Of a stretch of 64,000 bases of DNA, positions 6,894-44,860 are shown one piece after another. The stretch lies in NCBI GenBank assembly GCA_964486865.1, contig CAZAOZ010000010.1, positions 6,255 to 70,254 on the forward strand. The letters are read 5' to 3'. Position 1 is the first letter of the stretch, and each line of letters begins with the position of its first letter. Source of the stretch: an uncultured Bordetella sp. Its GTDB lineage: Bacteria > Pseudomonadota > Gammaproteobacteria > Burkholderiales > SG8-41. The translations under genes were made by a program, and so were the position numbers. Below the pieces are notes generated by a model. That model saw only the letters and a program-made list of their open reading frames with translations, was not told the DNA's origin and searched no databases.

Positions 6894-7241
6894 TTATCGC
6901 GAGTTGCTTTGAGGCCAGAACTCCTCAGGCGTTGCCTCGGATTGCGTGCGGATCAAGAATAATTTTTCGATCGGAACAACAGCAACGACCCCATCGCCGG
7001 GCAAGCCGGTGTGAGAGGCTTCCATAATCGCTGCTGTTATGGTTTCCACCTCGTCTTTTCGGGTGATAATTTCAAGCTTGACTTCCTCGACCATCCAGTT
7101 ACGCGAGAAGAAGTCGTGATATTCACCATATCCTTTTACCTTTGTAACGTTAATGCGCTCAACACCTGTTCCCTTAAGCTTCTGTTCGACCGATTCCAGC
7201 TTGTCACTCCGGATGATGGCAATAATCAGTTTAATGTCCAT
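6894..7241 (-). CDS. PII-superfamily protein with shortened T-loop (PII-NG-like), trailing gene of the cus operon
   Basis: Translation from ATG 7241 (GAGGAG 6 nt upstream): MDIKLIIAIIRSDKLESVEQKLKGTGVERINVTKVKGYGE...GLPGDGVVAVVPIEKLFLIRT. It has the GlnB-like beta-alpha-beta layout but lacks the canonical T-loop Tyr region. GC content is lower than the neighbours. Confidence 0.75.
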   Translation of the reverse strand: MDIKLIIAIIRSDKLESVEQKLKGTGVERINVTKVKGYGEYHDFFSRNWMVEEVKLEIITRKDEVETITAAIMEASHTGLPGDGVVAVVPIEKLFLIRTQSEATPEEFWPQSNSR

Positions 7242-7267
7242 GGCGTGCTCCTCTCGGTTTTCCATTT

Positions 7268-10421: not shown

Positions 10422-12068
10422 TCAGTGCCCCTTGTGGTCGGCAGGGCTGGCCGCAGCGGCAGGCTTCGCTCCGGCCGGTTGGGCGCCAACAATCACGTAC
10501 TCGCCGGCCGACGCCTCGATCATGTCGAAGGTGATGTTCTGACCCGGTTTCAGCGTGCGCAGCAATGCCGGGTCTTTCACCAGGAAGTCCATGGTCATCG
10601 CCGGCCACTTCAGGCTGGCAATCGGGCCATGGGTCAACGTTACCGTCGCGCGCGCCGCATCCACGGCATCGACACTGCCCTCGCCGCGATGAGTCGCGGG
10701 TGCCGCGGCAGACACGCCGGTCTTGACCTGCTGCCCCCGCTCGTCAGGCTTGGAACCGGGTGCGCTATGGCCGAAACCGCTCAGCGCCGCCTTGAGATTG
10801 CTCTCGGCGTCGATCAGGAAATTCGCACTGACCACCACGCTCTCGCCGGCCTTGATGCCCTCGAGCACTTCGAAGTAGCCGTCGGTGCGCCTTCCCAGTT
10901 TCACCGCGCGCGGTTCGAATGCGCCCTCGCCGCGTTGCACCAGCACCAGCTGGCGCGTGCCGGTATCGAGAATGGCCGAATCGGGAACGGCCAATACCCT
11001 GCCGCGGTCTCTGCCGGAGGCGATCTCCACCCGCGCGTACATGGCGGGCTTGAGCAGGCCGGCCGGATTGGGCAGTTCGATGCGCACTCTGGCAGTGCGG
11101 GTTTCCGGCACGACGGTCGGGTAGATAAACGTCACCTTGCCGGTGAAAGCCTGGTCCGGATACGCATCAACCCTGATTTTTACCGACTGCCCCAGGCGCA
11201 CCAATCCAAGGTCCTGCTCGAACACGTCCGCCAGCAACCACACCGAAGACAGGTCCGCGATCTGAAAGAGCATTTCACCCGGCATGAACCGCATGCCGGC
11301 GACGGCACGCTTCTCCAGCACCACGCCGCCGGCCTGCGCGCGCAACGTCAACGATTGCCGTGCCTTGCCCTCCTGCTGCAGCCGCTGCAACTCCGCCTCG
11401 GAAATGTCCCAGTTGCGCAACCGCTGCAGCGCGCTGTCAACGAGCGTGCGCATGCCCGCCTCGACCTCGGGACTCGCGCCTTTCACGGACTGCACGCCTT
11501 TCCATGCGATCAGGTATTCCTGCTGCGCAGTCACCAGATCGGGGCTGTAAACCTCAAGCAGCGGCTCGCCCCGGCGCACCAGCTGGCCGGTCGTATTCAC
11601 GTGGAGCTGCTGGATCCAGCCCTCGAACCTCGGCGAAACGGTATGCAGCTGGCGTTCGTTCGCCTGTATCGTCGCCACGGCCTGCACGGTGCGGGTGAGT
11701 TCGCGCAATTCCACGGCTTCAGTGCGCACGCCAAGCTTCTGCACCTTGTCGGGATTGATCTTCACCACGGAACCATCCGCCTCGGGCTCCCCGCCTTCAT
11801 AGACCGGGATGTAATCCATGCCCATCGGATCTTTTTTCGGCACCGGCGAGGTATCGGGCAACCCCATCGGGTTGCGGTAGTACAGAATCCTGTTCTCGGA
11901 CTTTTTCGCGGGACCCGCACTGCTTGCGCCGGCAGTGTCCGCTTTCATCACGGCGCCGTCCTTCCGTCCTCCCCACCAATAGCCTGCGGCAAGGGCGGCT
12001 GCGATCAGGGCGACAACAATAATCAGTTTGATGATGGATTTCACAGGAAACTCCGCTGACGTATGCAT
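10422..12068 (-). CDS. cusB: CusB-type RND periplasmic adaptor with C-terminal CusF-like metallochaperone domain
   Basis: 548 aa. N-terminal metal-binding segment YYRNPMGLPDTSPVPKKDPMGMDYIPVY, then the MFP barrel/hairpin body. The C-terminal 80 aa, GEGSVDAVDAARATVTLTHGPIASLKWPAMTMDFLV, match the CusF W-x-M-x-M fold signature. Confidence 0.85.
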   Translation of the reverse strand: MHTSAEFPVKSIIKLIIVVALIAAALAAGYWWGGRKDGAVMKADTAGASSAGPAKKSENRILYYRNPMGLPDTSPVPKKDPMGMDYIPVYEGGEPEADGSVVKINPDKVQKLGVRTEAVELRELTRTVQAVATIQANERQLHTVSPRFEGWIQQLHVNTTGQLVRRGEPLLEVYSPDLVTAQQEYLIAWKGVQSVKGASPEVEAGMRTLVDSALQRLRNWDISEAELQRLQQEGKARQSLTLRAQAGGVVLEKRAVAGMRFMPGEMLFQIADLSSVWLLADVFEQDLGLVRLGQSVKIRVDAYPDQAFTGKVTFIYPTVVPETRTARVRIELPNPAGLLKPAMYARVEIASGRDRGRVLAVPDSAILDTGTRQLVLVQRGEGAFEPRAVKLGRRTDGYFEVLEGIKAGESVVVSANFLIDAESNLKAALSGFGHSAPGSKPDERGQQVKTGVSAAAPATHRGEGSVDAVDAARATVTLTHGPIASLKWPAMTMDFLVKDPALLRTLKPGQNITFDMIEASAGEYVIVGAQPAGAKPAAAASPADHKGH

Positions 12069-13491: not shown

Positions 13492-13914
13492 TCAAATCAG
13501 AAAACTGCAGAAGCGGATAGTTTTGGGAGGATCCTTTACCGGATCAACCAGACTGCGCATCGCCACTGCGACGAGTGCGTTATCCGGCAACGATGGCAGG
13601 ATCAGGATGGTACCAGTCGGCGGCAGCGGAACTGCCCAAGGGGCATAGGCAGTCGACTTGTCGCTGTCCGCACATTTTATTGCACACAGTTTGCTCGCAC
13701 TCGTGGCGTGTGTCTCGCAATCATCGCCCATCTGTCCCGGCATCTCGCTGGCCGGAGACATCCCAAGCATGCCGCAGGGTTGAGCCGCAAAAGCAGTCTG
13801 CGCCAACAGCAGCGTGACGACAACCGCACGGCTGAACGCAAAAAACCAGCGGGTTGAATTTCTGATCACCCTATCGACCCCTATATGAACGCGGTAGTGG
13901 GAATGGCACAGCAT
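13492..13914 (-). CDS. small exported Cys/Met-rich protein, first gene of the cus operon (start uncertain: ATG 13914 or GTG 13869)
   Basis: Signal-like RNSTRWFFAFSRAVVVTLLLAQTAFAA, then CGMLGMSPASEMPGQMGDDCETH...CAIKC. The proline-rich C-terminal tail ends PPKTIRFCSFLI. The track's longer N-terminus would run across an FNR box. Confidence 0.5.
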   Translation of the reverse strand: MLCHSHYRVHIGVDRVIRNSTRWFFAFSRAVVVTLLLAQTAFAAQPCGMLGMSPASEMPGQMGDDCETHATSASKLCAIKCADSDKSTAYAPWAVPLPPTGTILILPSLPDNALVAVAMRSLVDPVKDPPKTIRFCSFLI

Positions 13915-13972
13915 ACTGATCTGAAAGGCTTCATCCTGAGTTCGGATTGTTGCAAGAATCGTGTTTTCTTGC

Positions 13973-13986
13973 TTGATGTACATCAA
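13973..13986. promoter_or_regulatory. perfect FNR/CRP-family box TTGATGTACATCAA
   Basis: Exact palindrome TTGAT-N4-ATCAA in the AT-rich divergent region between the cus operon and the molybdoenzyme operon. Confidence 0.6.
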
Positions 13987-14313
13987 ATCTTTCAAAACAA
14001 CCTCGCCTGCTGCAACAGCTCATACCGTAGAATAAAAAATAATAATACCAATAAAAACATATAGTTAATATCAAAGCGGGGCTGGCACATGTCCAGCCGC
14101 TGGCGCCATACCGGACGTTGCCCAGCCGGCACCACGCCGTCCAGCCGATCGTCACCGGCAGGGCAATCAAGAATGTCATGACGCAGCAACGGTCAACAGC
14201 AAATCAAATGACCGATGAGCAGTTGACCCAAGTCAAGATCAGTCATCGCTGTACTCATATCATTATTTCCAATTGATGCAAGAGTACGCGCAGGCAACAA
14301 GGAGACTTGAACT

Positions 14314-15513
14314 GTGGGCTCCGCACCGCAAGGTGCCGCACATGGCACGACGATGGGTTGGCATGAAGTTGCCAGCCCGTCATTGTTGTGGCGCAGTGCC
14401 GATTGCCTGCCCCTGTCAGCACAAGGATGCCAACTCTGCGCCGAGGCTTGCCCCGCAGGCGCCTTGACGATCAGCGCGGGGGTTCCTGCAGCCTCGTCCC
14501 AATGCACAGGCTGCGCCCGTTGCACGGCAGCATGCCCTACCGATGCGCTGCAGATGAAGGATTTCCCGGCGCCTGTCGCACCCACCGCAACAGGCAGCGC
14601 GGTCTTCATTGACTGCATGAAAGTTCCACAGGCGATGAGCCCCGCCGGCACTGTTCGGGTGCCGTGCATGGGCGGCCTCTCGCCGGGATGGCTGCTCACC
14701 CTGCAGGATCGCATCGGCAACGCTCCAATCACCGCGCTTGATCGTGGCTGGTGCGCGCATTGCAGCGCCGGCGACTCATCGTCATTCAGCGCCACCAGTC
14801 TGCTTGCCAGTGCGACACGACTGCTGAAGGACGCGGGCGCGCCAGCGGACATGCTGCCGCGGAGCGAGCATCGGCCGCTGCCATTGTCACGGATGCCCGA
14901 TGCGATCCCGCCTTCGATCAATGAAGCAGCCGTTTCACGTCGCGCCTTCTTTACCCGGACCCTTTCTGAAATGGCGAGTGCCGTCGCCAACCGCCGTCAA
15001 CCGGAAGGAATCAGGCATTTTCCCCGTCTGTCTCCGCTCCGCACCCTGGGCCGTGTCGTGCCTGCCGAGCAGGTTCGACGCGTAACAGCGCTCTCGAACA
15101 TCAGCCATCGCTATCGCACTTCGCCAGCGACATTCAATCTGCCCGCAGTGGCGATTTCGCGGGAACGGTGCGAGAACCACCAGGTATGCGCCGTGACGTG
15201 TCCTACCAGTGCGCTCACAAAATACGGACACGAAGGCACCACAGGTATCCGCTTCAATGCGTTGTTGTGCATCGGATGTCGCCAATGCGAGCGTGGATGC
15301 CCCGAACAGGCAATCCGGCTGTCGCTGTTTAACGAGACCCCATCACACGCCATGGAAATAAACCTGACCAATCATCAAGTCAATGTGTGCGCGACTTGCG
15401 AGGATGAGTTTTCAGGCATCCCCGGCGACGTATGCACTGCTTGCCGCAAGACCGAAGCGCTATTCGCAGGACGCGCGACATTGGACAAATCGATAGGCAA
15501 ACCAGCAGCTTGA
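14314..15513 (+). CDS. multi-cluster 4Fe-4S ferredoxin-domain protein (ArxB'-like first gene of the molybdoenzyme operon)
   Basis: 399 aa from GTG 14314, preceded by AAGGAGA. CxxCxxCxxxCP-type motifs: CQLCAEACP, CTGCARCTAACP, CENHQVCAVTCP, CIGCRQCERGCP. C-terminal CATC...CTAC pair. Confidence 0.7.
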   Translation: MGSAPQGAAHGTTMGWHEVASPSLLWRSADCLPLSAQGCQLCAEACPAGALTISAGVPAASSQCTGCARCTAACPTDALQMKDFPAPVAPTATGSAVFIDCMKVPQAMSPAGTVRVPCMGGLSPGWLLTLQDRIGNAPITALDRGWCAHCSAGDSSSFSATSLLASATRLLKDAGAPADMLPRSEHRPLPLSRMPDAIPPSINEAAVSRRAFFTRTLSEMASAVANRRQPEGIRHFPRLSPLRTLGRVVPAEQVRRVTALSNISHRYRTSPATFNLPAVAISRERCENHQVCAVTCPTSALTKYGHEGTTGIRFNALLCIGCRQCERGCPEQAIRLSLFNETPSHAMEINLTNHQVNVCATCEDEFSGIPGDVCTACRKTEALFAGRATLDKSIGKPAA

Positions 15514-15534
15514 ACTGCACAGGAGGTACTGATC

Positions 15535-18024
15535 GTGGGCGACTTTGAACAGATGGACAGGCGGGGATTCCTCAAGACTTCAGCCGTTGCAGGCGCGGCA
15601 GGTGCCGCAGCAGTCGGTGGCGGCGCAGTTGTGTCGGCCTTGAGCACGGATGCCACCGGGCTGGGTACCCGTCCGGCAGCGCCGGCACCCGAAACCAGGA
15701 TCGTCAAAAACGTATGTCATCAGTGCCCTGCGCGCTGTGGCATCGATGTCTACGTGACTAACGGCAAGGTTCATGCGATCTACGGGTCGCTGGATCACCC
15801 GATCTCCAACGGCAAGCTGTGCCCCAAGGGCCATCTTGGCGCATACATCCTGTACGATCCGGATCGCTTCACCGGCCCGATGAAACGGACCAATCCGAAC
15901 AAGGGCCGGAACGAGGATCCGAAGTGGCAGTCCATCAGCTGGGATGAGGCCCTCGATGCCGTCGCCAAGCGACTGAACGGCTTGCGTGACAAGGCAGAAC
16001 CGCATCGCTTCGCGATCGTCAACGGCCGCGGCTGGGGCAGCACCGACGTCGGACTGCTCGGCAACTTTGGCAAACTCTACGGGACGCCCAATGCCACGAT
16101 GGGCCATTCGTCGATCTGCGCCGATACCAGCAAGAAAGCCAAATCTGCTGTCGACGGCAACTACAACTACAACTCATACGATTACAAGAACACCAATTAC
16201 CTGCTGATATTCGGCGCCGCCTTCCTCGAAGCCTACCGGCCCTACAACGCCAACATGCAGGCCTGGGGGCACATTCGCACCAAGGCACCCAAGACCAAGG
16301 TTGCGGTTGCAGACGTGCGCGTGACCACCACCGGTGCCGCCGCCGACCACCTGATGCTCGTCAAGCCCGGGACGGACGGTGCGCTGGCGCTGGCGATCGC
16401 ACACGTGATCCTCACCGAGGGGCTGTGGGACCGCAAGTTCGTCGGTGACTTCGTTGATGGCGTCAACCTCTTCAAAACCGGAGAGACCCTCGAAGTCAAA
16501 AGCTTCAAGGAAAAATGGACGCTCGGCCTGATCGAGTGGTGGAACGCCGAACTCAAGGACCGGACGCCGAAGTGGGCCGCGGAGATCACCACTGTGGCGG
16601 AGCGCGACATCCTCAATGTTGCGCGCGAGTTCGGCGCCACGCGCCCGGCCATGGCGATCTTCGAGCGTGGTGTAACGCTGCATACCAACGGCATGTACAG
16701 CGGCATGGCGGTGCATGTGCTGAACGCACTCGTCGGCGCGATGTATGCAGTCGGCGGCCTCGCCAACCAGATGGGCGTGCCCTACGGCAAGCTGTCCGTA
16801 AGCTCCGATGACTTCGTCGATGATGCCGCCAAGGAAGCAGCCGCCAGGAAAATGCCGCGTATCGACCGTGTGAAGAGCAAAGAGCTGCCATTGGCCGCCA
16901 ACAACATTCAGGGCATTCCACAAAGCATTATCGAAGGAAAGCCGTACACGCTCGACACGATCATGTTCTACATCACGAATCCGATTTACAGTGCTCCCAA
17001 CGCAAAACAATGGGAAGAGGCGCTGAAAAAAGTCTTTGTGATCGAAACATCCCCGTTTCCGAGCGAGACCTCAGTATTCGCAGACCTGGTGCTGCCCGAC
17101 CACACTTTCCTTGAGCGCTGGCAGGACACGCCCACTTATCCGTTTGAGGGATGGCCGCTGACCAACATCCGGGTACCGGCGGTAAAGCCGCTCCATAACA
17201 CCAAACACTTCGGTGACACGCTGATCGAGATCGGCAAGCGCATCAAGGGCCCGACCAGCGAGTATTACCAGAAGGTTGGCAACGTCGAGAACGTACTCAA
17301 AGCCATCGCCAAGGGTTTTGAGGCCAATCCGGGATCCAACGGCGTCAACAGTTTCGAAAAATGGGTCGAGAAAGGGGTTTGGTACAAAACGCCCTACCTC
17401 TACCGCCAGATCGCGGGGGAATTCTACGAGTGGGACGGCAGCGATTATCGCAAGCCGATGTCCGCCGAAGACGTCAAAAAGAAGCTGCTGAAGACCGAGT
17501 CGGGCAAGTTCGAGCTGAAATCGAGCTATCTCGAACACTACGACGAGTTCATCACATCCAAGCTTGGCATCGTCAAGGAAAAAGTCGGTTTCCCGCAGTG
17601 GATTCCGCCGAAATACACCGGCGGCGGCGACCTGCATTTCATCGCCACCAAAACGCCGATGCATGGTGAGGGGCGCACCGCAAATATTCCGACTGCGATT
17701 TCGCAATACCAGCCGACTTCCGGCGGCCGCCCCGAGCTGTTCCTCGAAATCCACCCTGAGACTGCAGCCAAGCGCGGCATCCGCAATGGCGACCGGGTGA
17801 AGATACACAACGAACTCGGCGCGATCTATGCCAGGGCCAGTATTTTCCCGGCATGCCGGCCCGACACGGTTGTGCTGCCTTACGGGTTCGGGCACTGGGC
17901 ACATGGCCGCTGGGCCAAGGGCCGCATGGAAGGCAACACCAACGAAATCATTCCGAATGTATCCGAACCGATTTCGAACGCCGCGGCAGTACACACGGTG
18001 ACGGTAAAGGTCGAGAAGGCTTAG
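15535..18024 (+). CDS. arxA: Tat-exported molybdopterin (DMSO-reductase-family) oxidoreductase catalytic subunit, Arr/Arx clade; ArxA-like
   Basis: 829 aa from GTG 15535 after AGGAGG. Twin-arginine signal MDRRGFLKTSAVAGAAG. C-x2-C-x3-C-x27-C cluster motif (CHQCPARC...27 aa...C). NGRGWG at 16021-16038. Candidate Mo-ligand region GHSSICAD. Confidence 0.6.
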   Translation: MGDFEQMDRRGFLKTSAVAGAAGAAAVGGGAVVSALSTDATGLGTRPAAPAPETRIVKNVCHQCPARCGIDVYVTNGKVHAIYGSLDHPISNGKLCPKGHLGAYILYDPDRFTGPMKRTNPNKGRNEDPKWQSISWDEALDAVAKRLNGLRDKAEPHRFAIVNGRGWGSTDVGLLGNFGKLYGTPNATMGHSSICADTSKKAKSAVDGNYNYNSYDYKNTNYLLIFGAAFLEAYRPYNANMQAWGHIRTKAPKTKVAVADVRVTTTGAAADHLMLVKPGTDGALALAIAHVILTEGLWDRKFVGDFVDGVNLFKTGETLEVKSFKEKWTLGLIEWWNAELKDRTPKWAAEITTVAERDILNVAREFGATRPAMAIFERGVTLHTNGMYSGMAVHVLNALVGAMYAVGGLANQMGVPYGKLSVSSDDFVDDAAKEAAARKMPRIDRVKSKELPLAANNIQGIPQSIIEGKPYTLDTIMFYITNPIYSAPNAKQWEEALKKVFVIETSPFPSETSVFADLVLPDHTFLERWQDTPTYPFEGWPLTNIRVPAVKPLHNTKHFGDTLIEIGKRIKGPTSEYYQKVGNVENVLKAIAKGFEANPGSNGVNSFEKWVEKGVWYKTPYLYRQIAGEFYEWDGSDYRKPMSAEDVKKKLLKTESGKFELKSSYLEHYDEFITSKLGIVKEKVGFPQWIPPKYTGGGDLHFIATKTPMHGEGRTANIPTAISQYQPTSGGRPELFLEIHPETAAKRGIRNGDRVKIHNELGAIYARASIFPACRPDTVVLPYGFGHWAHGRWAKGRMEGNTNEIIPNVSEPISNAAAVHTVTVKVEKA

Positions 18025-18070
18025 TCCCTGGTCATCAACGAATGCGCTGAATGAGAAAAGGAGAATAACC

Positions 18071-18832
18071 ATGGCCCGCTGGGGAATGGTAATTGATCTG
18101 GAAAAATGCACTGGCTGCCAGGCCTGCTCCACCGCCTGTTCGATGGAAAATTCCAGACTGCCCGGTGAGAACTGGCAGGACGTGCTGTTTTACAATGAAG
18201 GCGAGTATCCAAGCGGAAAACTGACATGGTTGCCGCGGCCGTGCATGCACTGCGAGGAAGCATCATGTGTTACGGTGTGTCCGACCAAGGCGACATACAA
18301 GGACAAGGACGGCTTCGTACTCATCAACTGGGATCTCTGCATTGGCTGCAAATACTGCATGATCGCCTGCCCCTACGGCGTCCGGTTTTATGCCGAGGAA
18401 AAGCAGAAGACGCAGCCCGACGTGCGCAAGGTCTGGCCCAGCAGCGAAGGCAACGTCTGGGATCCGCCCTGGGCAATGCCGAAGCATCTGCATGATCCAC
18501 AGCATGGTGTTGGCGTGCAGCCGCGAAATGTGGTCTCCAAGTGCACCTTCTGCTACCACCGTGTCAGCAAGGCGCCCAAGGGCACGCCGGACCTGGATCC
18601 GAACGATCCGAAAACGCGTGACTACACACCGGCCTGCGTCGTTACCTGCGCGCCAACTGCGCGCTACTTCGGCGATCTCGACAACCCGAAGAGCCACGTA
18701 CGCAAGCTGATTGCCGAAAAGCGGGGCGTCCGGCTGCAGGATCACACCGGCAACCGTCCCCAAGTCTACTACCTGGCAGGCGAAGCGGCATCCATACCGG
18801 AAACGCGCTCCACCCGCATGAAGAAAAGTTAA
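18071..18832 (+). CDS. arxB: 4Fe-4S electron-transfer subunit (DmsB/PsrB/ArxB-like)
   Basis: 253 aa. Four ferredoxin cysteine groups: CTGCQACSTAC, CMHCEEASCVTVCP, CIGCKYCMIACP, CTFCYHR...CVVTCP. Confidence 0.75.
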   Translation: MARWGMVIDLEKCTGCQACSTACSMENSRLPGENWQDVLFYNEGEYPSGKLTWLPRPCMHCEEASCVTVCPTKATYKDKDGFVLINWDLCIGCKYCMIACPYGVRFYAEEKQKTQPDVRKVWPSSEGNVWDPPWAMPKHLHDPQHGVGVQPRNVVSKCTFCYHRVSKAPKGTPDLDPNDPKTRDYTPACVVTCAPTARYFGDLDNPKSHVRKLIAEKRGVRLQDHTGNRPQVYYLAGEAASIPETRSTRMKKS

Positions 18833-18844
18833 GGGAGAGGAATC

Positions 18845-20035
18845 ATGAGCATACTTGCAATGAGAACACCCGACGGCCGGCCGCTGCTCGACCTGCAAAC
18901 GAAACCCGACGGAATATCGGCACTGATGATGATCGGCGGCGCAATTGTTGCCGGCGTCAGCCTTTCCATCGTTTTGTTCATGCTGTTCATGGAAGGCCAC
19001 GCCGCATACAACACCTCCAGCGATTTCCCGTGGGGAGCGCCGATTGCTTTTTACATGTTCTTTCTGCTCGCCTCCTCGGGGCTGTCGATCATATCTTCTC
19101 TCGACACGGTCTTCGGCCTTAATACCTTCTACCCGATTGTCAAACGCTGCATCTGGCTGTCGATCATTACGCTGGTAGCAGGTTTCACGCTGCTCGCACT
19201 GGAGCTTGGCAATCCGTTTCGCCTGCTATGGGCGGTGCCGATTGCCGCTCAGGTTAAATCGCCGATGTGGTGGATGGGCACTTTTTATTCAATAGATCTG
19301 GCATTGCTGTGCCTGAAGTTTTACTTCCTGCACACGGGCGAATGGAACAGCAAACGCATGCACTTGATTTCGATCAACTCGTTCATAATCTGCATCCTGG
19401 CCTCCGGCACGCTCGGACTCACGTTCGGCATGATGGCCATGCGACCGGCTTGGTACAGCCCGGTCATGCCCATGTATTTCATCCTGACCGGCTTTATGAC
19501 GGCGGTGGCATTCATCGTCTTCTTTACCGGCCTGATCCGCCGGGTCAACGGCACACCGGAAAATGTACGTAAACTTTTTGATGAAGTCCTGCCGCGTCTG
19601 TTTTTTGTCACCCTGCTGGCGGTAGTTGTGATGCGGGTCGGTCAAATCGTCACCGGACTGTGGAGCAATTTCGAAGGTATGGAAGCTCACTGGCGGGCGT
19701 TGACATCAGTCATGTTTCATATCGAAATCTGGATCGGATTAGCAATCCCGCTGGTATTGATGAGTAGCCGCGAACGGCGCACCAAAGTGACGATCCAGAT
19801 GGTCTCGGCACTGCTTTTCATGATCGGCATTTTCTCGGCACGATTGCACCTGCTGATCATGGGCCAGGAAGTACCATTATTCCGGGGCTACTGGGCGGGT
19901 TATGTCGAATACACCCCGTCATTCACCGAGTGGCTGCTGATTCCGGCAGGCTTCGGCATCGTCTTCATGTTATATGGTGCAGGCAACTGGTTGCTGAATC
20001 TGTCCGAACACCGTGAACCGACAACTGTACACTGA
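18845..20035 (+). CDS. arxC: NrfD/PsrC-family integral-membrane quinone-interacting subunit (ArxC-like)
   Basis: 396-aa polytopic hydrophobic ORF immediately after the FeS subunit, with an AGGGAGAGG Shine-Dalgarno. Confidence 0.7.
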   Translation: MSILAMRTPDGRPLLDLQTKPDGISALMMIGGAIVAGVSLSIVLFMLFMEGHAAYNTSSDFPWGAPIAFYMFFLLASSGLSIISSLDTVFGLNTFYPIVKRCIWLSIITLVAGFTLLALELGNPFRLLWAVPIAAQVKSPMWWMGTFYSIDLALLCLKFYFLHTGEWNSKRMHLISINSFIICILASGTLGLTFGMMAMRPAWYSPVMPMYFILTGFMTAVAFIVFFTGLIRRVNGTPENVRKLFDEVLPRLFFVTLLAVVVMRVGQIVTGLWSNFEGMEAHWRALTSVMFHIEIWIGLAIPLVLMSSRERRTKVTIQMVSALLFMIGIFSARLHLLIMGQEVPLFRGYWAGYVEYTPSFTEWLLIPAGFGIVFMLYGAGNWLLNLSEHREPTTVH

Positions 20036-20080
20036 AGCAGATTGAACTATTGAGCATTACGTATTTGAGTGACATTTTTT

Positions 20081-20158
20081 CCCTCATCCCAACCCTTCTC
20101 CCGGTGGGAGAAGGGCTCTTCACCCCTCGCCCTTCGGGAGAGGGGCCGGGGGTGAGGG
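20081..20158. repeat. nested-palindrome REP-like element
   Basis: ccctcatccc...cccttctccc-ggt-gggagaaggg...cccctcgcccttcgggagagggg...ggggtgaggg. The antisense ORF 19965..20168 (LTPGPSPEGRGV...) is its translation artefact. Confidence 0.7.
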
Positions 20159-20209
20159 AAGGAAGCACCGTGATCCACGCTTGTCACAAGGTTCTGTAAT
20201 CCTCAATAA

Positions 20210-22575: not shown

Positions 22576-23034
22576 ATGAAAACCTTCAACAAAATCGCAA
22601 CTGGAATCACCCTGACCGTGGCACTTGGTCTTGCTGTCACCGCTTTTGCCCATCCGGATCAACCCGGCAGCGGCATGGGTTACGGCATGCATCATGGCTA
22701 TGGCGCCCAGGGTGGATATGGCCCCGGCGCGATGATGCAAGGCGCCCAGGGCGGATACGGCCCCGGCGCGATGATGCAGGGCGGCCAGGGCCCGCAGGCT
22801 GCATTTCAGCTGATGACACCGGAAGAACGCACGGCAATGTGGGAAAAAATGCGCGCCGCCGCGACGCCGGAAGAGCGCCAGCAGATCGCCGCCGCGAACC
22901 ATGCCGAGATGCAGAAACGCGCCCAGGAAAAAGGCATCACGCTGCCTGAGTTTCGCGGACCGCAAGGTCACTTCGGCGCCGGCGGACCCTGCCCTGGTTT
23001 CACCGCATCGGCCACCACCACTCCGGCGCAGTAA
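22576..23034 (+). CDS. exported Gly/Met-rich CpxP/Spy/ZraP-like periplasmic protein
   Basis: 152 aa with signal peptide. Contains a GAQGGYGPGAMMQ x2 repeat, then the LTxxQ-like helix segment QLMTPEERTAMWEKMRAAATPEERQQIAAANHAEMQKRAQEKG. Divergent from the two-component system. Confidence 0.55.
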   Translation: MKTFNKIATGITLTVALGLAVTAFAHPDQPGSGMGYGMHHGYGAQGGYGPGAMMQGAQGGYGPGAMMQGGQGPQAAFQLMTPEERTAMWEKMRAAATPEERQQIAAANHAEMQKRAQEKGITLPEFRGPQGHFGAGGPCPGFTASATTTPAQ

Positions 23035-23130
23035 GCCCATCGGGAGGGGCGTAACACCCGCCCCTCTCTTTTTTTCGTGGCATCATCAACCACCATGATG
23101 ATGCCGCATTCACGTACAAGAGGTTCTCGC

Positions 23131-23796
23131 ATGAAACCGTTTTCGATGATGATCGCCGCTCTGATCCTGCTCATTGCCGCTGCGCTGCCGCTGCCGGCCA
23201 CAGCGCAGTCGCCCCACACCCACCAGCACAGCTTCGGCAATGCGGAAAAATGGGCGCAGGTATTCGACGACCCGGCGCGCGACGCGTGGCAGAAGCCGCA
23301 CGAAGTCATCCAGGCGCTGCAGCTCAAGCCGGACGCGGTGATCGCCGACATCGGCGCGGGCACCGGCTATTTCTCGGTGCGCTTTGCGAACATGACGCCG
23401 CAAGGCCGCGTCTATGGCATCGACACCGAGCCCGACATGGTGAAATACCTGGCCGAACGCGCGAAACGCGAAGGACTGAAAAACATTATCGCGGCGCAGG
23501 CCAAACCCGGTGATCCGCAACTGCCGGAAAAAGCTGATCTGATTATCTTGGTTGACGTTTACCACCACGTTGAAAACCGGGAACGGTATTTCCGCCAACT
23601 GCAAAGTTCATTGAAAGCGGGTGGCCGCCTCGCCGTGATCGATTTCACCATGGACTCACCCGTGGGCCCGCCCAAATCCGCGCGCATCGCGCCGGAGCAG
23701 GTCAAGGCTGAACTGCAGCGTGCCGGATATGCACTGGCAGAAGAACATACGTTCCTGCCGAACCAGTATTTCCTGGTATTCCGTTCCGGCGTCTGA
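23131..23796 (+). CDS. class I SAM-dependent methyltransferase fold with an N-terminal signal peptide
   Basis: From ATG 23131: MKPFSMMIAALILLIAAALPLPATAQSPHTHQH..., then motif I VIADIGAGTGYF. Confidence 0.75.
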   Translation: MKPFSMMIAALILLIAAALPLPATAQSPHTHQHSFGNAEKWAQVFDDPARDAWQKPHEVIQALQLKPDAVIADIGAGTGYFSVRFANMTPQGRVYGIDTEPDMVKYLAERAKREGLKNIIAAQAKPGDPQLPEKADLIILVDVYHHVENRERYFRQLQSSLKAGGRLAVIDFTMDSPVGPPKSARIAPEQVKAELQRAGYALAEEHTFLPNQYFLVFRSGV

Positions 23797-23802
23797 TCGG
23801 AA

Positions 23803-24978
23803 TTACGGACCTACGTACTGTGCACTTTCTCTTGCAGCAACCTCATCGCGCTTGGCCTTGAATTCTTTCTTCGCAGCATACATGTGGACATCGACCCGCT
23901 TGATAAACGAAGCAGCATCTTCGTATTCATCCGGGCCCACCTGCGCGATCCCGGTGCTTAATGTGACATCTCCCAGACATTCCTGGAGTTCAATGTTAAG
24001 ACGCTTTAAATAAATCTCCCGCGCCTGCTCTGCCCGGCAATTGGGCAAAATCAGACAGAACTCGTCACCGCCGTAACGAAAACAACTGTCCTCGGTCCGC
24101 GACACCTTCCTGACCAGTCTGCCAACCTCGCTCAAGACTTCATCACCACGCTGGTGGCCCTGGGTGTCATTGATTATCTTGAAATCATTAATATCAAAAT
24201 ACACCAGTGTCACGGGTTCGGAGCGTCGTTCGGCACTTCGCAGGGTTCTCGTCAGCGTTTCGTTCAGATACCTCACGCTCAGCAGCCCGGTTAACGCATC
24301 GGTACGCGCCATTTCCTCAAGCTGCCGGGTACGCTCCCTGACTTTTTCTTCCAGCGACTTGGCGTAGAGTTCCGACTTCTCTTTGGAGATTTCTATTTCA
24401 GAAACCAGACTCCGGATATAAGTCTCAAACACCAGCGTCACGTCAAACAGGAGCAGCTTCTCAAGCGCCAACATCATTGATGCACGCTGGTCCGCGTCGG
24501 TTAATTCCCTGGCAATGACCTCATTCAGCAATGTTTTCAGGGTGCTGACAGCCGAAAGATACAACTTCGGTTCGACACCAATGCGTTTATGCACAAGACC
24601 AATTCGCAGCCGATTGTTGACATACTCAAGGTCGTACATTCCCCCGAACAGATCCAGCACATATCTGCGCTGCGCAGTCCGCAGGCGAGCCAGGGTATCC
24701 GCATCACCAATCAGCAGCGAGATTTCAGCGATGCTGGTTTGCAACTCGTAAAATTTCGCAACCAATCCATCAATGCCAGCCTGGATGACTGGTTGAAAGC
24801 TGTTGAGAGTCCTGGCTTCAGCATCGGTAAAATCCAGCAAACTCTTGCGATGCGAAATATCGAATTCGCTAATCCGCATCTGCTCAAGCAGGCTTAGATT
24901 GGTTTGCCTCCTTTGGTCCATTTGCGCCACTGCACATCCCTTTTTCGTCGAGATATTGAAATCGGTGAATCCAGCCAT
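23803..24978 (-). CDS. globin-coupled-sensor diguanylate cyclase (GGDEF)
   Basis: 391 aa. N-terminal globin-coupled sensor-like domain (FTDAEARTLNSFQPVIQAGIDGLVAKFYE...RIGLVHKRIGVEPKLYLSA). C-terminal GGDEF domain with RYGGDEF and DALTGL. The gene and its upstream region have lower GC. Confidence 0.75.
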   Translation of the reverse strand: MAGFTDFNISTKKGCAVAQMDQRRQTNLSLLEQMRISEFDISHRKSLLDFTDAEARTLNSFQPVIQAGIDGLVAKFYELQTSIAEISLLIGDADTLARLRTAQRRYVLDLFGGMYDLEYVNNRLRIGLVHKRIGVEPKLYLSAVSTLKTLLNEVIARELTDADQRASMMLALEKLLLFDVTLVFETYIRSLVSEIEISKEKSELYAKSLEEKVRERTRQLEEMARTDALTGLLSVRYLNETLTRTLRSAERRSEPVTLVYFDINDFKIINDTQGHQRGDEVLSEVGRLVRKVSRTEDSCFRYGGDEFCLILPNCRAEQAREIYLKRLNIELQECLGDVTLSTGIAQVGPDEYEDAASFIKRVDVHMYAAKKEFKAKRDEVAARESAQYVGP

Positions 24979-25336: not shown

Positions 25337-28300
25337 TTACGGAGCTGCGCCCTCGAACCGTCGCCGATAAGCCACGTAATACAGTACCGGGATGACCACC
25401 AGCGTCAGCAATGTTGACACCAGAATGCCGAAAATCAGCGCAATCGCCAGCCCGTTGAATATCGGATCGTCGAGAATGAACATCGCCCCGAGCATCGCCG
25501 CCAGCCCGGTCAGCACAATCGGCTTGGCCCGCGCCACCGCGGATTGCATCACCGCCTCGCGCAGCGACACACCTTCGGCCATCTTCAGGTTGATGAAATC
25601 CACCAGCAGGATCGAGTTGCGCACGATGATGCCGGCCAGCGCGATCATGCCGATCATCGAGGTTGCGGTGAAATTCGCACCGAACAGCGCATGGCCGGGC
25701 ATCACGCCGATCACCGTCAGCGGGATCGGCGCCATGATGATCAGCGGCGCGAGATAGGAGCGGAACTGCGCCACCACCAGCAGATAGATCAGGATCAGGC
25801 CCACCGCATAGGCAATGCCCATATCGCGGAAGGTTTCGTAGGTGACTTTCCATTCACCATCCCACTTGATCGCGTACTCGCGGTACGGATCGTCCGGCAC
25901 ACGAATGAAATATTCGCCGAGCACGCCGCCCTCTTCCAGCGGCTGCCCGGCCACTTTGCCGCGCGCGGCGAACATGCCGTAGAGCGGGCTGTCGACGCGC
26001 CCTGCCTGGTCGCCGATCACGTACACCACCGGCAGCAGGTCCTTGTGATAAATCGGCCGGTCGCGCAGGTTGCGCACCTCCGTCACCAGTTCCGACAGAG
26101 GCACCAGACCGCCGGCCTGCCCGCGCACCGTCAGCTTCAGGAAATCCGCCAGTTCACCCTTGCGCTCCGCCGGCATCGACAGCCGCACCGGCACTTCGTA
26201 TTTCGACTGCCCGTCGTGCAGCGGCGTCACGTCGGCGCCGGCCAGCCCGATGCGCATGGTTTCGACGATGTCGCGGCGATTGACTCCGGCCAGCGCCGCC
26301 TTGGCCTGATCGACCTTGAGCACGATGCGCGGCGCCGGATCTTCCACGCTGTCGTCAATGCCGACGATACCCGCGGTCGCCGCAAAGGCTGCACGCACCT
26401 TCTTTGCCACGCGGATGCGGCCCTGTTCATCCGGGCCGTAGACTTCGGCGACCAGCGGCGACAGCACCGGCGGCCCCGGCGGCACCTCGACCACCTTGAC
26501 CTTGGCATCCCACTGCGCGGCGATGGCTTCCAGCTTCGGACGCACCGCCTGCGCGATCTCGTGGCTCTGCCGGTCGCGCGCATGCTTGTCGACCAGGTTG
26601 ACCTGAATGTCGCCCTGCTCGGACAGCGCGCGCAAATAGTATTGCCGCACCAGGCCGTTGAAATTGATCGGCGCCGCAGTACCCGCATAGACCTGGTAAT
26701 GCGTCACTTCAGGTACCGTCGCCAGATGTGCACCCATGTCGCGTAACGCGGCTGCAGTGATTTCCACCGGGGTGCCGGCCGGCATGTCAACAACCACCTG
26801 AAATTCCGACTTGTTGTCAAAGGGCAGCATTTTCAGAATCACCAGCTTGAAGCCCGCCAGTGCTACCGAACCGAGAATCAGCGCCACCACAACCAGCAAC
26901 AACCGGCGGCGATTGCGCGCAGCATGCTGCATGGTGATGAACGGGCCGAGCAGCCGCTGGAACAGGCGCTCGAGCCGGTCGCCACCGGCATTGTGATGGG
27001 CGGTCTTGCCGAGCAGCTTCAAGGCCAGCCATGGCGTCAACACAAATGCGATCACCAGCGAAATCAGCATGCCCATGCTGGCGTTGATCGGGATCGGGCT
27101 CATGTACGGCCCCATCAGGCCGGTGACGAAGGCCATCGGCAGCAATGCGGCAATCACCGTGAAGGTCGCCAGTATGGTCGGCCCGCCGACTTCATCGACC
27201 GCCAGCGGGATGACTTCCGCCAGCGGCTTGCGGTCGAGCGCCATGCGACGGTGGATGTTTTCGACGACCACGATCGCGTCGTCAACCAGGATGCCGATCG
27301 AGAAGATCAATGCGAACAACGACACCCGGTTCAACGTAAAGCCCCACGCCCAGGACGCGAACAGCGTCGCCGCCAGAGTCAGAGCCACCGCCACACCGAC
27401 GATCAGTGCCTCGCGGCGCCCCAGGGTCAGGAATACCAGCACCACCACCGACAGCGTGGCAAAGATCAGCTTCTGGATCAGCTTCATCGCCTTGTCGTTG
27501 GCCGTCGCGCCATAGTCGCGCGTAACGCTGACCTGCACATCATCGGGAATCACCGTACCGCGCAATTCCTCCACGCGCTGTATCACGCGTGCCGTGACCG
27601 CCACAGCGTTCTCACTGGCTTTCTTGGTGATTTGCATCGTCACCGCCGGCTGCTCGCCGCCGGCTGCAACACCCTGGTTCGCGCCGGCAGGGCCCGACCC
27701 GGTCCATACATACCGCGCTGGCTGATCCGGACCGTCCACCACTTCGGCCACATCCGCCAGATAGACCGGCCGGCTCTCGTAAGTACCGACGACCATATTC
27801 CTGACGTCGGATACAGAACTGAAAAATTCGCCGGTCTCCACCACCACGTCGCGGTTATCGCGGGTCAGTGTGCCGGCAGGCTGTGCAAGGTTCGACGCCT
27901 GCAGTGCATTGCGCAAATCCAGAACCGACAGACCGTGCGCAGTCAGGCGATCGGCATCCAGCCGGATCAGCGCTGCGCGGCCGGGGCCGCCGATCGTCTG
28001 CACTTCACGGGTACCGGGCACGCGCTTGAGTTCCACTTCCACAGCATGCGCCACGCGCTCGAGCTCGTAGGCGCCGTGCGCACTATCTCTGCTCCATAAC
28101 GTCAGCGTCACCACCGGCACATCATCAATACCCTTGGGCTTGATGATGGGCTCGCCGACGCCCAGATTGGGCGATACCCAGTCGCGATTGGAATTGATAG
28201 TGTCGTGGAGCCGCACCAGTGCGTCGATGCGCGGCACACCAACCTTGAACTGCACTGTAATGATCGCCAGCCCGCTGCGCGATACCGAGTACACGTGATC

Positions 28301-28546
28301 AACGCCGGTCATCTGTGCCAATACCTGTTCGGCCGGTGTAGCCACCAGGTTCTCGACGTCTTTTACAGCGGCGCCCGGAAATGCGATCAGCACATTGGCC
28401 ATCGTCACATCGATCTGCGGCTCTTCCTCACGCGGCGTCACCACCACGGCGAACACCCCGAGCAGCAGCGCCACCAGTGCCAGCAACGGCGTGACCTGCG
28501 AACCCTGAAAGTAGCGGGCAATGCGCCCGGAAATCCCCATGTTCAC
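25337..28546 (-). CDS. RND efflux permease (AcrB/HAE-type)
   Basis: 1069-aa 12-TM RND architecture. 4-nt overlap with the upstream adaptor gene. Confidence 0.9.
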   Translation of the reverse strand: MNMGISGRIARYFQGSQVTPLLALVALLLGVFAVVVTPREEEPQIDVTMANVLIAFPGAAVKDVENLVATPAEQVLAQMTGVDHVYSVSRSGLAIITVQFKVGVPRIDALVRLHDTINSNRDWVSPNLGVGEPIIKPKGIDDVPVVTLTLWSRDSAHGAYELERVAHAVEVELKRVPGTREVQTIGGPGRAALIRLDADRLTAHGLSVLDLRNALQASNLAQPAGTLTRDNRDVVVETGEFFSSVSDVRNMVVGTYESRPVYLADVAEVVDGPDQPARYVWTGSGPAGANQGVAAGGEQPAVTMQITKKASENAVAVTARVIQRVEELRGTVIPDDVQVSVTRDYGATANDKAMKLIQKLIFATLSVVVLVFLTLGRREALIVGVAVALTLAATLFASWAWGFTLNRVSLFALIFSIGILVDDAIVVVENIHRRMALDRKPLAEVIPLAVDEVGGPTILATFTVIAALLPMAFVTGLMGPYMSPIPINASMGMLISLVIAFVLTPWLALKLLGKTAHHNAGGDRLERLFQRLLGPFITMQHAARNRRRLLLVVVALILGSVALAGFKLVILKMLPFDNKSEFQVVVDMPAGTPVEITAAALRDMGAHLATVPEVTHYQVYAGTAAPINFNGLVRQYYLRALSEQGDIQVNLVDKHARDRQSHEIAQAVRPKLEAIAAQWDAKVKVVEVPPGPPVLSPLVAEVYGPDEQGRIRVAKKVRAAFAATAGIVGIDDSVEDPAPRIVLKVDQAKAALAGVNRRDIVETMRIGLAGADVTPLHDGQSKYEVPVRLSMPAERKGELADFLKLTVRGQAGGLVPLSELVTEVRNLRDRPIYHKDLLPVVYVIGDQAGRVDSPLYGMFAARGKVAGQPLEEGGVLGEYFIRVPDDPYREYAIKWDGEWKVTYETFRDMGIAYAVGLILIYLLVVAQFRSYLAPLIIMAPIPLTVIGVMPGHALFGANFTATSMIGMIALAGIIVRNSILLVDFINLKMAEGVSLREAVMQSAVARAKPIVLTGLAAMLGAMFILDDPIFNGLAIALIFGILVSTLLTLVVIPVLYYVAYRRRFEGAAP

Positions 28547-29598
28547 CGGCCGTGCGCCATGCCGGCCTTGACCGGCTCCAGCGCCACCCGCTCACCCGCT
28601 TTCAGGCCTGCGAGCACTTCGATGCCCTGCCCGTCGCCTGCCGTGCCGAGACGGATCTGGCGCAACCGCGGCGCACCTTTGTCGTCGATTACATAGACCG
28701 CAGTCACCTCACTGCGTCGCAGGACTGCGGCGCGCGGCACCAGCAGCCGTGTCGCGCGGCCCGTTGCAAAATGCGCGCGGGCAAACACGCCGGGAATAAT
28801 GCCGTTGATGTCCGCAGGCAGTTCAAGTCGTACACGGGTGGTATGCGTGCGTGGATCGGCCGAGGGTACAACCGTAATCTGCTTCGCCTCAAATCGACGA
28901 CCCAGTGCCGGCACTTCGACCCAGGCTCTACCGATGGCCCGTATCGCCGTCAACTGTGCCTGCGGCAGATTGGCCACGACCCGCAGCGTCGACGGATCAA
29001 ACCCCGTCATCACCGGCTTGCCGGGTACCGCCATTTCACCGACCTCAACATGGCGCGCGGAAACCACCCCGCTGTACGGCGCGACAATGGTGGCAAAACT
29101 GCGTTCGGTGGCGGCCAACCCTGCACCGGCAATCAGCGAGGAAACACGGGCCTGCGCGGCCTTGTAGTCCGCTTCCGCGCGGTCGAGTCCGGCCGCGCTG
29201 ATGAATTTCTGAGCAGCCAACTGTTTGGAACGTTCAAACTGCGCGCGGGCATTGGCGAGTGCCGCCTGCGCCTCCAGCACCTGCGCCGCACTGGCAGCCA
29301 CGGCCTGGTTGACCGTACGCTCATCAATGCGCGCGATGACTTCACCCTTCTTCACAATGTCACCGACGTCGAAGCGCACTTCGACCACGCGGCCGGCAAT
29401 CTGCGCAGCGACTGTGGATTGGCGCACCGCCTCGACCACCGCTTCCGCCGTGTAAACCAGATCAATCTCGCGCGCTTCGACGACTGCCGACGGCAGCGGT
29501 GCCGCCGGCGCCCGTGCCGGCGCTCCGGATTCTCCGCCGCAGGCGGCAATCAGCGCGACGACGGCAAGTGCGGTCGGCAATCTCATGCGGGTATTCAT
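28543..29598 (-). CDS. RND periplasmic adaptor (MFP) lipoprotein
   Basis: 351 aa with lipobox LIAAC, plus coiled-coil hairpin and beta-barrel segments. Confidence 0.85.
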   Translation of the reverse strand: MNTRMRLPTALAVVALIAACGGESGAPARAPAAPLPSAVVEAREIDLVYTAEAVVEAVRQSTVAAQIAGRVVEVRFDVGDIVKKGEVIARIDERTVNQAVAASAAQVLEAQAALANARAQFERSKQLAAQKFISAAGLDRAEADYKAAQARVSSLIAGAGLAATERSFATIVAPYSGVVSARHVEVGEMAVPGKPVMTGFDPSTLRVVANLPQAQLTAIRAIGRAWVEVPALGRRFEAKQITVVPSADPRTHTTRVRLELPADINGIIPGVFARAHFATGRATRLLVPRAAVLRRSEVTAVYVIDDKGAPRLRQIRLGTAGDGQGIEVLAGLKAGERVALEPVKAGMAHGR

Positions 29599-43207: not shown

Positions 43208-43822
43208 ATGATCCGCAAATGGTGGAAAAACCTGCAGGAGCGCTGCAAGACCTGCTCCCGGGTCACCCTGACCGCAGGCGTGGTCATCACCGCACTGGTC
43301 GTCGCCGGCCTGTTGATGACCGCCGGTGCCGCCGGCCTTGCCTGGACCAACACCGAGCAGTTCTGCATCGGCTGTCACGAGATGAAGGACAACGTGTACG
43401 CCGAATTCAAGGGCACCATCCACGATACCAACCGTTCCGGCGTGCGCGCCATCTGCTCCGACTGCCATGTGCCGCGCGAGCCGGGGCCGATGCTGGTACG
43501 CAAGGTCAGCGCCACGTTCGAGCTGTGGGGACATTTCGTCACGGGCGTGATCGACACCAAGGAAAAATTCCAGGCGCATCGTCCCGCAATGGCCCACCGC
43601 GTGTGGGAGCGCATGCTCGACACCGATTCGCTCGAATGCCGCAACTGCCACAAGCGTGATGCCATGAGCGCGGACAAACAGTCCGAGAAGGCGCGCAGCC
43701 GCCACGCCAAGGCGCAAAAAGAGGGTCAGACCTGCATCGAATGCCACTACGGCATCGCCCACGGGGAGCCGGACGGCATCGGTCCGCAGGAACTCAAAGA
43801 GGCACGGTTGAAGAACAAGTAG
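43208..43822 (+). CDS. cymA: NapC/NirT/CymA-family membrane-anchored tetrahaem quinol dehydrogenase
   Basis: 204 aa with an N-terminal TM helix. Four CxxCH motifs: CIGCH, CSDCH, CRNCH, CIECH. Confidence 0.85.
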   Translation: MIRKWWKNLQERCKTCSRVTLTAGVVITALVVAGLLMTAGAAGLAWTNTEQFCIGCHEMKDNVYAEFKGTIHDTNRSGVRAICSDCHVPREPGPMLVRKVSATFELWGHFVTGVIDTKEKFQAHRPAMAHRVWERMLDTDSLECRNCHKRDAMSADKQSEKARSRHAKAQKEGQTCIECHYGIAHGEPDGIGPQELKEARLKNK

Positions 43823-43877
43823 CGGTAATGGACAACGCGGGCTCGCCCGCACATCGTCAACAACGAGGTACGACGAC

Positions 43878-44840: not shown

Positions 44841-44860
44841 CCGGTAGACAGGAGACGATC

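Follow-up and report, generated by a model that had tools for sequence, protein, structure and literature searches.

A 64-kb stretch of DNA from an uncultured Bordetella sp. (Burkholderiales, contig CAZAOZ010000010.1), hereafter the window, was found to carry four consecutive genes that probably form an arxB2-arxA-arxB-arxC operon for a quinone-linked arsenite oxidase of the Arx type. The catalytic subunit ArxA almost certainly belongs to the Arx clade, and the enzyme probably oxidises arsenite in vivo. Within the clade the protein stands in a coherent, uncultured subclade, a stripped-down Arx variant that is apparently undescribed. The operon was read from translations, Pfam domain assignments and regular expressions run on the translated open reading frames (ORFs):

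14314-15513, forward strand: arxB2, 399 aa, Pfam Fer4 at residues 38-82 and 280-337 (two separate dicluster regions)
15535-18024, forward strand: arxA, 829 aa, Pfam TAT_signal, Molybdop_Fe4S4, Molybdopterin and Molydop_binding
18071-18832, forward strand: arxB, 253 aa, Pfam Fer4_11 (four-cluster type)
18845-20035, forward strand: arxC, 396 aa, Pfam NrfD (1e-25)

An earlier note on this DNA had described four ORFs with Shine-Dalgarno sites and short gaps next to a cus operon, and all of this was borne out on re-reading. The Shine-Dalgarno sequences are, in gene order, AAGGAGA, AGGAGG, AAGGAGA and AGGGAGAGG, located 6-9 nt 5' of the starts, and the gaps measure 21 nt (B2-A), 46 nt (A-B) and 12 nt (B-C). 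The neighbour on the minus strand is a cusC-cusB-cusA set according to Pfam (OEP, CusB with CusF domain, ACR_tran). In ArxA the following sites were located:

15556-15576, forward strand: twin-arginine motif DRRGFLK, residues 8-14 (translation; Pfam TAT_signal at residues 6-26)
15715-15822, forward strand: FS0 [4Fe-4S] site C61-x2-C64-x3-C68-x27-C96 (regular expression; Pfam Molybdop_Fe4S4 at residues 55-107)
16021-16038, forward strand: NGRGWG, residues 163-168, the XGRGWG signature of ArxA, aligning onto RGRYSH of ArrA 6CZ7
16105-16170, forward strand: active-site stretch H191-S192-S193-x-C195...K200...Y212 (pairwise alignment to ArrA)

The signal for twin-arginine translocation (Tat), the cysteine spacing C-x2-C-x3-C-x27-C (CHQCPARC, 27 aa and C, residues 61-96) and the NGRGWG motif, all reported in the earlier note, were confirmed in the translation. 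In the alignment to PDB 6CZ7 the stretch IVNGRGWGS lines up with LLRGRYSH of ArrA. ArxA has XGRGWG at the position where ArrA has (R/K)GRY (PMC6549141, citing Glasser 2018). All 83 sampled Arx loci have GRGWG, and so do 119 of the 120 most similar database proteins. When the 150 nearest cluster representatives at 50% identity were compared, it was confined to the Arx cluster and four Arx fragments and occurred in none of the non-Arx full-length representatives, while ArrA-type representatives had RGRY at this position. The motif, which the earlier note had named as distinguishing ArxA from ArrA, is thus clade-specific.

Sequence comparison gave the same placement. ArxA of the window is 57-61% identical to the proteins of canonical arx clusters from Sulfuricella denitrificans skB26, Cereibacter azotoformans ORIO and Ectothiorhodospira shaposhnikovii, against about 25% for PhsA. 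A tblastn search of plasmids found two annotated complete arx clusters (ArxA 59%), on pSCD of strain skB26 and on pORIO3 of strain ORIO, both with arxXSR, arxB2ABCD including the TorD gene, and ars genes. A genome scan for relatives returned 80 loci (labelled L001 etc.), among them those of arx-bearing E. shaposhnikovii, Thioalkalivibrio, Halomonas, Marinospirillum, Nitrincola and Ca. Muproteobacteria at 57-61% identity. Clustering at 50% put the window protein into the canonical ArxA cluster P0121, and in an exhaustive search of representatives the next cluster was 48% identical. A profile made from canonical ArxA only scored the window at 1386 bits and PhsA at 209 bits; an ArrA profile scored the window at 617 bits. 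With the NCBIfam models ArrA was best at 452.6 bits (NF041714, cut-off 1600), followed by PhsA with 310 bits (cut-off 694), and of the solved structures ArrA 6CZ7 was the best match (397 bits, PsrA 2VPW 198 bits).

A neighbour-joining (NJ) tree was calculated from 102 sequences over 775 columns with 100 bootstraps; as references it included the ArrA of the PDB alignment and, as outgroup, PhsA from a plasmid. All GRGWG proteins formed one clade of 82 Arx sequences including the window, with 100% bootstrap and a long stem. Its sister group consisted of three uncharacterised clusters, followed by the ArrA clade (100%, including Shewanella ArrA), in which all members had RGRY. The phylogeny that had been proposed as a check for the 829-aa protein placed it with Arx, neither with Psr/Phs nor with Arr, and because GRGWG also proved clade-specific the Arx placement is favoured. 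An identity as ArrA was ruled out by NGRGWG in place of (R/K)GRY, by the separate clade and by the NCBIfam score below its cut-off. Within the Arx clade the window fell into a 16-member subclade with 100% bootstrap, and all members are metagenome-assembled genomes (MAGs) of Beta- and Alphaproteobacteria. The closest relatives of the window ArxA are from two Burkholderiales MAGs (L003 and L015) with 91% identity. The remaining Arx proteins were monophyletic in 55% of the replicates, so that the subclade may either be the sister group of the remaining Arx or lie within them.

A polysulfide, thiosulfate or sulfur reductase (Psr/Phs/Sre type) had been left open as an alternative. PsrABC and PhsABC are built alike, as complex iron-sulfur molybdoenzymes of three subunits with an NrfD anchor, and their operons contain no TorD chaperone gene; some relatives of the window protein are annotated as 'thiosulfate reductase/polysulfide reductase chain A' or 'phsA'. 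However, the identity to PhsA is less than half of that to ArxA, PsrA 2VPW scores far below ArrA, PhsA scores far below the window on the Arx profile, and PhsA, without GRGWG, lies outside the Arx/Arr group in the tree. The phylogeny effectively refutes this assignment, and we regard such a reductase as extremely unlikely.

The comparison with Shewanella sp. ANA-3 ArrAB (6CZ7) concerns the active site. FS0, the Mo-ligand cysteine and, in the pocket, H, S, K and Y are common to both enzymes; they differ in RGRY of ArrA where the window has NGRGWG, and ArrA forms its own clade with 100% bootstrap. R165, H191, S192, C195, K200 and Y212 of the window correspond to ArrA R165, H189, S190, C193, K198 and Y210, with the numbering offset of the PDB alignment. 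We take H189, S190, K198 and Y210 of ArrA to be the oxyanion-binding residues, and C195 is the predicted Mo ligand of ArxA. All six window residues are invariant in the subclade, and pocket positions are generally conserved across Arx and Arr.

This similarity bears on the direction of catalysis. The same enzyme might run in reverse as a respiratory arsenate reductase, with electrons passing from quinol via ArxC and ArxB to ArxA, or it might work both ways. The Arr clade is near to Arx in the NJ tree, the oxyanion-binding residues are common to both, and an FNR-type box upstream of the operon (see below) would suit an anaerobic reductase equally well. The enzyme of Alkalilimnicola ehrlichii was reportedly found to be reversible in vitro by Richey and co-workers in 2009. 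Against a reductase stand the motif, which is GRGWG of the ArxA type and not RGRY, and the fact that all members of the GRGWG clade that were studied in experiments are arsenite oxidisers. Further, one relative (L007) has a separate ArrA-type operon beside its subclade operon, which argues for different roles. Reverse or bidirectional catalysis is considered unlikely, and arsenite oxidation remains the preferred reading.

The three other subunits point to the same system. ArxB2 contains 23 cysteines, arranged as four CxxCxxCxxxC-like groups, one 4-Cys site and a C-terminal CxxC-x11-CxxC, and each of the 23 is conserved in at least 94% of 64 ArxB2 orthologues. The protein is 36% identical to ArxB2 of Sulfuricella over 351 aa (E 3e-54) and 28% identical to ArxB2 of Cereibacter. 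An arxB2 ferredoxin gene was reported to be specific for arx clusters (PMC6549141). The earlier interpretation of the ferredoxin gene ahead of the catalytic gene as an Arx layout has proven correct, for identity and the conservation of all 23 cysteines make it a true ArxB2 orthologue. A hydropathy scan of ArxB2 revealed no signal peptide and no transmembrane or hydrophobic segment; thus the protein would be cytoplasmic and could not belong to a periplasmic electron wire. ArxB has 16 cysteines in four groups, and its identity to the canonical protein is 67% for Sulfuricella and 65% for Cereibacter; its NCBIfam matches (ArrB, DsrO, QrcC-like) were all under their cut-offs. As it has no signal peptide, ArxB is presumably co-exported with ArxA. 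ArxC possesses about 8-9 hydrophobic segments, is 48% identical to ArxC of Sulfuricella and 35% to that of Cereibacter, and is a predicted integral membrane anchor of the NrfD/PsrC type that interacts with quinone. By their sequence, ArxB2, ArxB and ArxC are orthologous to subunits encoded in arx clusters equipped with arxXSR, arxD and ars genes.

Among the ArxB2 proteins of the relatives some variation was observed. In the subclade loci L005/L087, L091, L092, L008, L006 and L017 the protein is shortened to about 180-226 aa with just the C-terminal ferredoxin half kept, and in L088/L089 a full-length B2-like gene is relocated downstream on the opposite strand. B2 changes considerably faster than the other three subunits: its identity between L003 and the window is 54%, against 86-93% for A, B and C.

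The operon agrees with the arx clusters of A. ehrlichii MLHE-1, Ectothiorhodospira spp. and Azoarcus sp. CIB in the order B2-A-B-C, the NrfD-type ArxC, the four-cluster ArxB, the Tat signal, FS0 and XGRGWG of ArxA and the cysteine pattern of ArxB2. Unlike these clusters, it has no arxD after arxC and no divergent arxXSR, ars genes were not found in the 64 kb, the FNR-type box replaces the expected control by ArxR, a sigma-54 activator, and the X of the motif is N, not Y/F. The arxXSR genes code for a periplasmic As(III)-binding protein, a histidine kinase and the sigma-54 activator. Of the arxB'ABCD layout of A. ehrlichii, which the earlier note had seen in the genes, the order B2-A-B-C therefore holds while arxD is missing after arxC. 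The cluster on pSCD of Sulfuricella denitrificans skB26, which is ARX group 3 of Ospino et al. 2019, is likewise of the betaproteobacterial low-salt type; identities are 67% for ArxB, 48% for ArxC, 36% for ArxB2 and 56-59% for ArxA. It differs by a long insertion in ArxA (937 aa vs 829), by its arxXSR, arxD, moaA and ars genes and by a position outside the window subclade.

The earlier note had seen no arxD, arxXSR or ars genes in the window, and their absence was confirmed by tblastn, six-frame searches with hidden Markov models (HMMs) and Pfam on about 40 ORFs. An ArxD model built from 49 orthologues had no match in the six frames of the 64 kb, nor had tblastn, and ArxX had no match in the six-frame HMM search of the window. 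The loss of arxD extends beyond this locus. A gene for ArxD directly after arxC was present in one of 13 subclade loci, the basal member L013, vs 49 of 51 other Arx loci (p 3e-10), and a binding protein of the ArxX/AioX type was encoded in one of 11 subclade loci vs 26 of 40 others (p 0.001). Conversely, a secreted coiled-coil ORF of about 100 aa (orf101) followed arxC in 9 of 13 subclade loci and in 0 of 51 other Arx loci (p 3e-8). The absence of arxD is a trait of the whole subclade and not an accident of the window locus.

A few arx clusters without arxD are already listed, and arxXSR is also missing in Halomonas, Marinospirillum, Nitrincola and Halorhodospira halophila (PMC6549141); the absence of arxD thus does not exclude a membership in ARX. 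An operon without a TorD chaperone gene may, by analogy, still function: its absence does not preclude an active enzyme. phsABC and the arrAB of Shewanella work although no TorD gene is known from their operons. No subclade members were present among the genomes in the accessible part of the supplement of Ospino et al. 2019. Literature searches found neither a description of an ArxD-less group nor ArxA together with GRGWG.

The small secreted ORF showed a faint, sub-threshold Pfam match to the CpxP/Spy-like family Metal_resist. Its copies and the corresponding gap of the window are:

L015, 13606-13893: small secreted ORF directly after arxC, intact
L003, about 14550-14900: the same ORF directly after arxC, a pseudogene (stop and frameshift)
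L087, 14467-14772: small secreted ORF directly after arxC
L088, 14498-14806: small secreted ORF directly after arxC
Window, 20036-20209, no strand: gap of 175 bp between arxC and a convergent histidine-kinase gene, with GC-rich inverted repeats, where relatives have arxD or orf101

A comparison of this gap with L015 and L003 revealed no recognisable remnant of arxD or of the small ORF. As the ORF is broken in L003 and deleted from the window, it is dispensable in this lineage.

These losses could be read as a decay of the operon to a remnant that makes no active enzyme, its chaperone and regulators gone; arxD and arxXSR are absent from the window, and the small accessory ORF passes from intact in L015 over broken in L003 to deleted in the window. 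The four ORFs, however, are intact with strong Shine-Dalgarno sites, and the identical protein was present on six metagenome contigs. The ratio of nonsynonymous to synonymous substitution rates (dN/dS) against the 91%-identical relatives was 0.06 for arxA, 0.03-0.04 for arxB, 0.07 for arxC and 0.21 for arxB2, values that are approximate because dS is near saturation. The core arx genes are under strong purifying selection, and a decaying remnant is very improbable.

The gene neighbourhoods of relatives connect the subclade to arsenic. One subclade operon lies beside arsR-arsC-acr3, aioBA and aioXS, another beside arsC-acr3-pstSCAB and another beside an X-S-R-like set; altogether five subclade loci, independent of each other, lie within sets of arsenic genes. 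On the question whether the subclade enzyme is still an arsenic enzyme, the catalytic-site residues and these neighbourhoods say yes, as far as can be judged from genes. For other members of the Arx clade experimental results are on record: E. shaposhnikovii DSM 243 oxidises As(III) anaerobically and has arxA without aioA (PMC5370401), and Azoarcus sp. CIB no longer oxidises As(III) once its arxA is disrupted (PMC6683785). The E. shaposhnikovii locus (L076) encodes an ArxA that is 61% identical to the window protein.

Some relatives carry a second arsenic enzyme as well. On L007 genes for an ArrA-type enzyme (IRGRYS), an ArrB-like and a TorD-like protein (14663-18450, minus strand) run convergently towards an arxB2ABC set of the subclade type, and acr3 is close by; such an island would hold both directions of arsenic redox. 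The MAG CAZVHU01 carries on one contig (L053) a complete canonical arxXSR-B2ABCD-acr3 set, followed at the contig end by a convergent subclade-type arxC and the small ORF, and on another contig (L017) the matching subclade-type arxA, which suggests two Arx paralogues side by side.

Several points weigh against an arsenite oxidase. The tree is distance-based (NJ, not maximum likelihood), and ArxA of A. ehrlichii was not among the 80 retrieved loci, hence it is outside the tree. The 16-locus subclade is known from MAGs alone, with no cultured member. Most canonical ArxA have Y or F as the X of the motif, but the subclade has N, H, T or others there. In the 64 kb neither a TorD-family chaperone was found with profile HMMs in six frames nor ars, aio, pst or arsenite-sensor genes with tblastn, HMMs and Pfam on about 40 ORFs, and the operon lies amid copper and silver resistance genes. 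In some genomes the subclade type stands beside canonical Arx, Aio or Arr, which could mean a different role.

From these points a shift of the ArxD-less subclade to Sb(III), to another oxyanion or to a stress function in a metal island might be drawn, the enzyme being Arx-like by descent only. Consistent with it are the monophyly of the subclade (100%) and its own accessory gene content, the islands that it shares with canonical Arx, Aio or Arr, the copper/silver resistance context without detected ars genes and the deviating motif position. However, fixed differences to other Arx occur in just 3 of 777 columns, none of them a known pocket residue. In the NJ tree the subclade has a short stem (0.04 vs 0.25 for the Arx stem), and the five loci within arsenic gene sets also speak against a shift, which we hold for improbable. 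Similarly doubtful, if a little less remote, is a functionally separate paralogue: the subclade without ArxD and XSR would be an oxidase induced by FNR under oxygen limitation and not by arsenite. The small periplasmic partner, the position beside canonical Arx, Aio or Arr and the copper/silver-resistance region hint at a distinct substrate, quinone partner or role. In such a paralogue the cytoplasmic ArxB2 might serve in maturation in place of the absent TorD-type chaperone.

The FNR/FixK-type sites of the window are as follows, the second entry giving all positions of the degenerate pattern:

14223-14236, forward strand: FNR/FixK-type box TTGACCCAAGTCAA, a perfect palindrome, 78-91 nt upstream of the arxB2 start
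13973, 14223, 19364, 42692, 42749, 50637, 52319, 53288 and 58944: copies of TTGAY-N4-RTCAA

A TATCAT hexamer resembling a -10 element is located about 21 nt downstream of the box. The half-sites of the arxB2 box are kept at -79 and -77 in L003 and L015, with a diverged spacer. TTGAY-N4-RTCAA occurs nine times in the window vs 0.11 expected copies; copies precede ccoN and lie in the interval from hemN to an fnr-like gene, and one is inside arxC. The window also encodes three Crp/Fnr-family regulators and a cbb3 oxidase (54-59 kb). The boxes suggest a dense Fnr/FixK regulon, and the operon is probably driven by a regulator of the FNR/FixK type under oxygen limitation, not by arsenite sensing. 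A sigma-54 promoter upstream of arxB2 was detected in none of the subclade loci with a strict pattern, which is weak evidence because the pattern matched just 5 of 64 canonical loci. The adjacent convergent kinase and regulator were considered as ArxSR or CusRS and rejected: EnvZ/OmpR was best, the cut-offs for heavy-metal two-component systems were missed, and ArxS and ArxR matched solely via generic domains.

A mechanism for arsenite oxidation can be drawn from the way in which complex iron-sulfur molybdoenzymes are known to be built and from published work on ARX. ArxA would obtain its molybdenum bis(pyranopterin guanine dinucleotide) cofactor and the FS0 cluster in the cytoplasm and be exported by the Tat system along with the signal-less ArxB. 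In the periplasm As(III) would be oxidised to As(V) at the Mo centre with Cys195 as ligand, in an oxyanion pocket presumably formed by R165, H191, S192, K200 and Y212. Electrons may then flow from FS0 via the four ArxB clusters to ArxC, where quinone would be reduced. Candidates for the use of the quinol by a terminal acceptor are the cbb3 oxidase of the window or a denitrification enzyme encoded elsewhere. ArxB2 is most likely cytoplasmic and may act in maturation or redox support; a NapF-like maturation role is speculation.

Other genes of the window deserve mention. The cusB gene (10422-12068, minus strand) codes for a membrane-fusion protein with a C-terminal CusF-like domain, hence a fused metallochaperone, and cusA is followed by a gene for a P-II family protein (about 6900-7250, minus strand). 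Between cusC and arxB2 lies an ORF for a cysteine-containing protein of 163 aa (13492-13983, minus strand), the start of which is overlapped by an FNR-type box; it had no family match, and homologues were found solely on near-identical contigs. At 22576-23796 on the forward strand a Gly/Met/His-rich secreted protein of 152 aa, which had no Pfam match, is followed by a class I S-adenosylmethionine (SAM) methyltransferase. The latter has an apparent signal peptide and zero cysteine; a periplasmic SAM methyltransferase would be odd. The pair recurs beside subclade arx operons in L003, L015 and L088/L089, with methyltransferase identities of 72-82%. An assignment of the methyltransferase as ArsM was rejected due to the signal peptide, the lack of cysteine and weak, generic matches to ArsM models far below the cut-offs. 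A protoglobin-GGDEF protein (23803-24921, minus strand), possibly a gas- or redox-sensing diguanylate cyclase, adjoins a second resistance-nodulation-cell division efflux system (25337-29598). Further downstream (43208-46879, forward strand) are genes for a NapC/NirT tetrahaem cytochrome similar to CymA (43208-43822), a decahaem cytochrome of the DmsE family (43878-44840) and an MtrB/PioB porin (to 46879). Together they look like a module for extracellular electron transfer or Fe(II) oxidation of the Mto/Pio type, and two of the FNR-type boxes (42692 and 42749) lie upstream of it.

The enzyme family is ordinary; the novelty lies in the coherent, stripped-down variant, which is apparently undescribed and comprises sixteen species-level MAGs, plus probably dozens of the closest metagenome proteins. 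Surveys of groundwater, paddy soil and sediment use arxA as a marker gene for anaerobic arsenite oxidation. Databases label this branch, which is widespread among Beta- and Alphaproteobacterial MAGs, merely as 'molybdopterin-dependent oxidoreductase' or 'thiosulfate reductase', and the branch is without the features by which the textbook cluster is defined, the chaperone and the regulators that respond to arsenite. If the enzymes are not active, arxA-based surveys would over-count. The branch also presents a natural experiment on whether ArxD is dispensable and on what ArxB2 does. If the enzymes are active, the capacity for arsenite oxidation would be under-annotated in low-salt, low-arsenic habitats, and its expression may follow oxygen scarcity regardless of arsenic.

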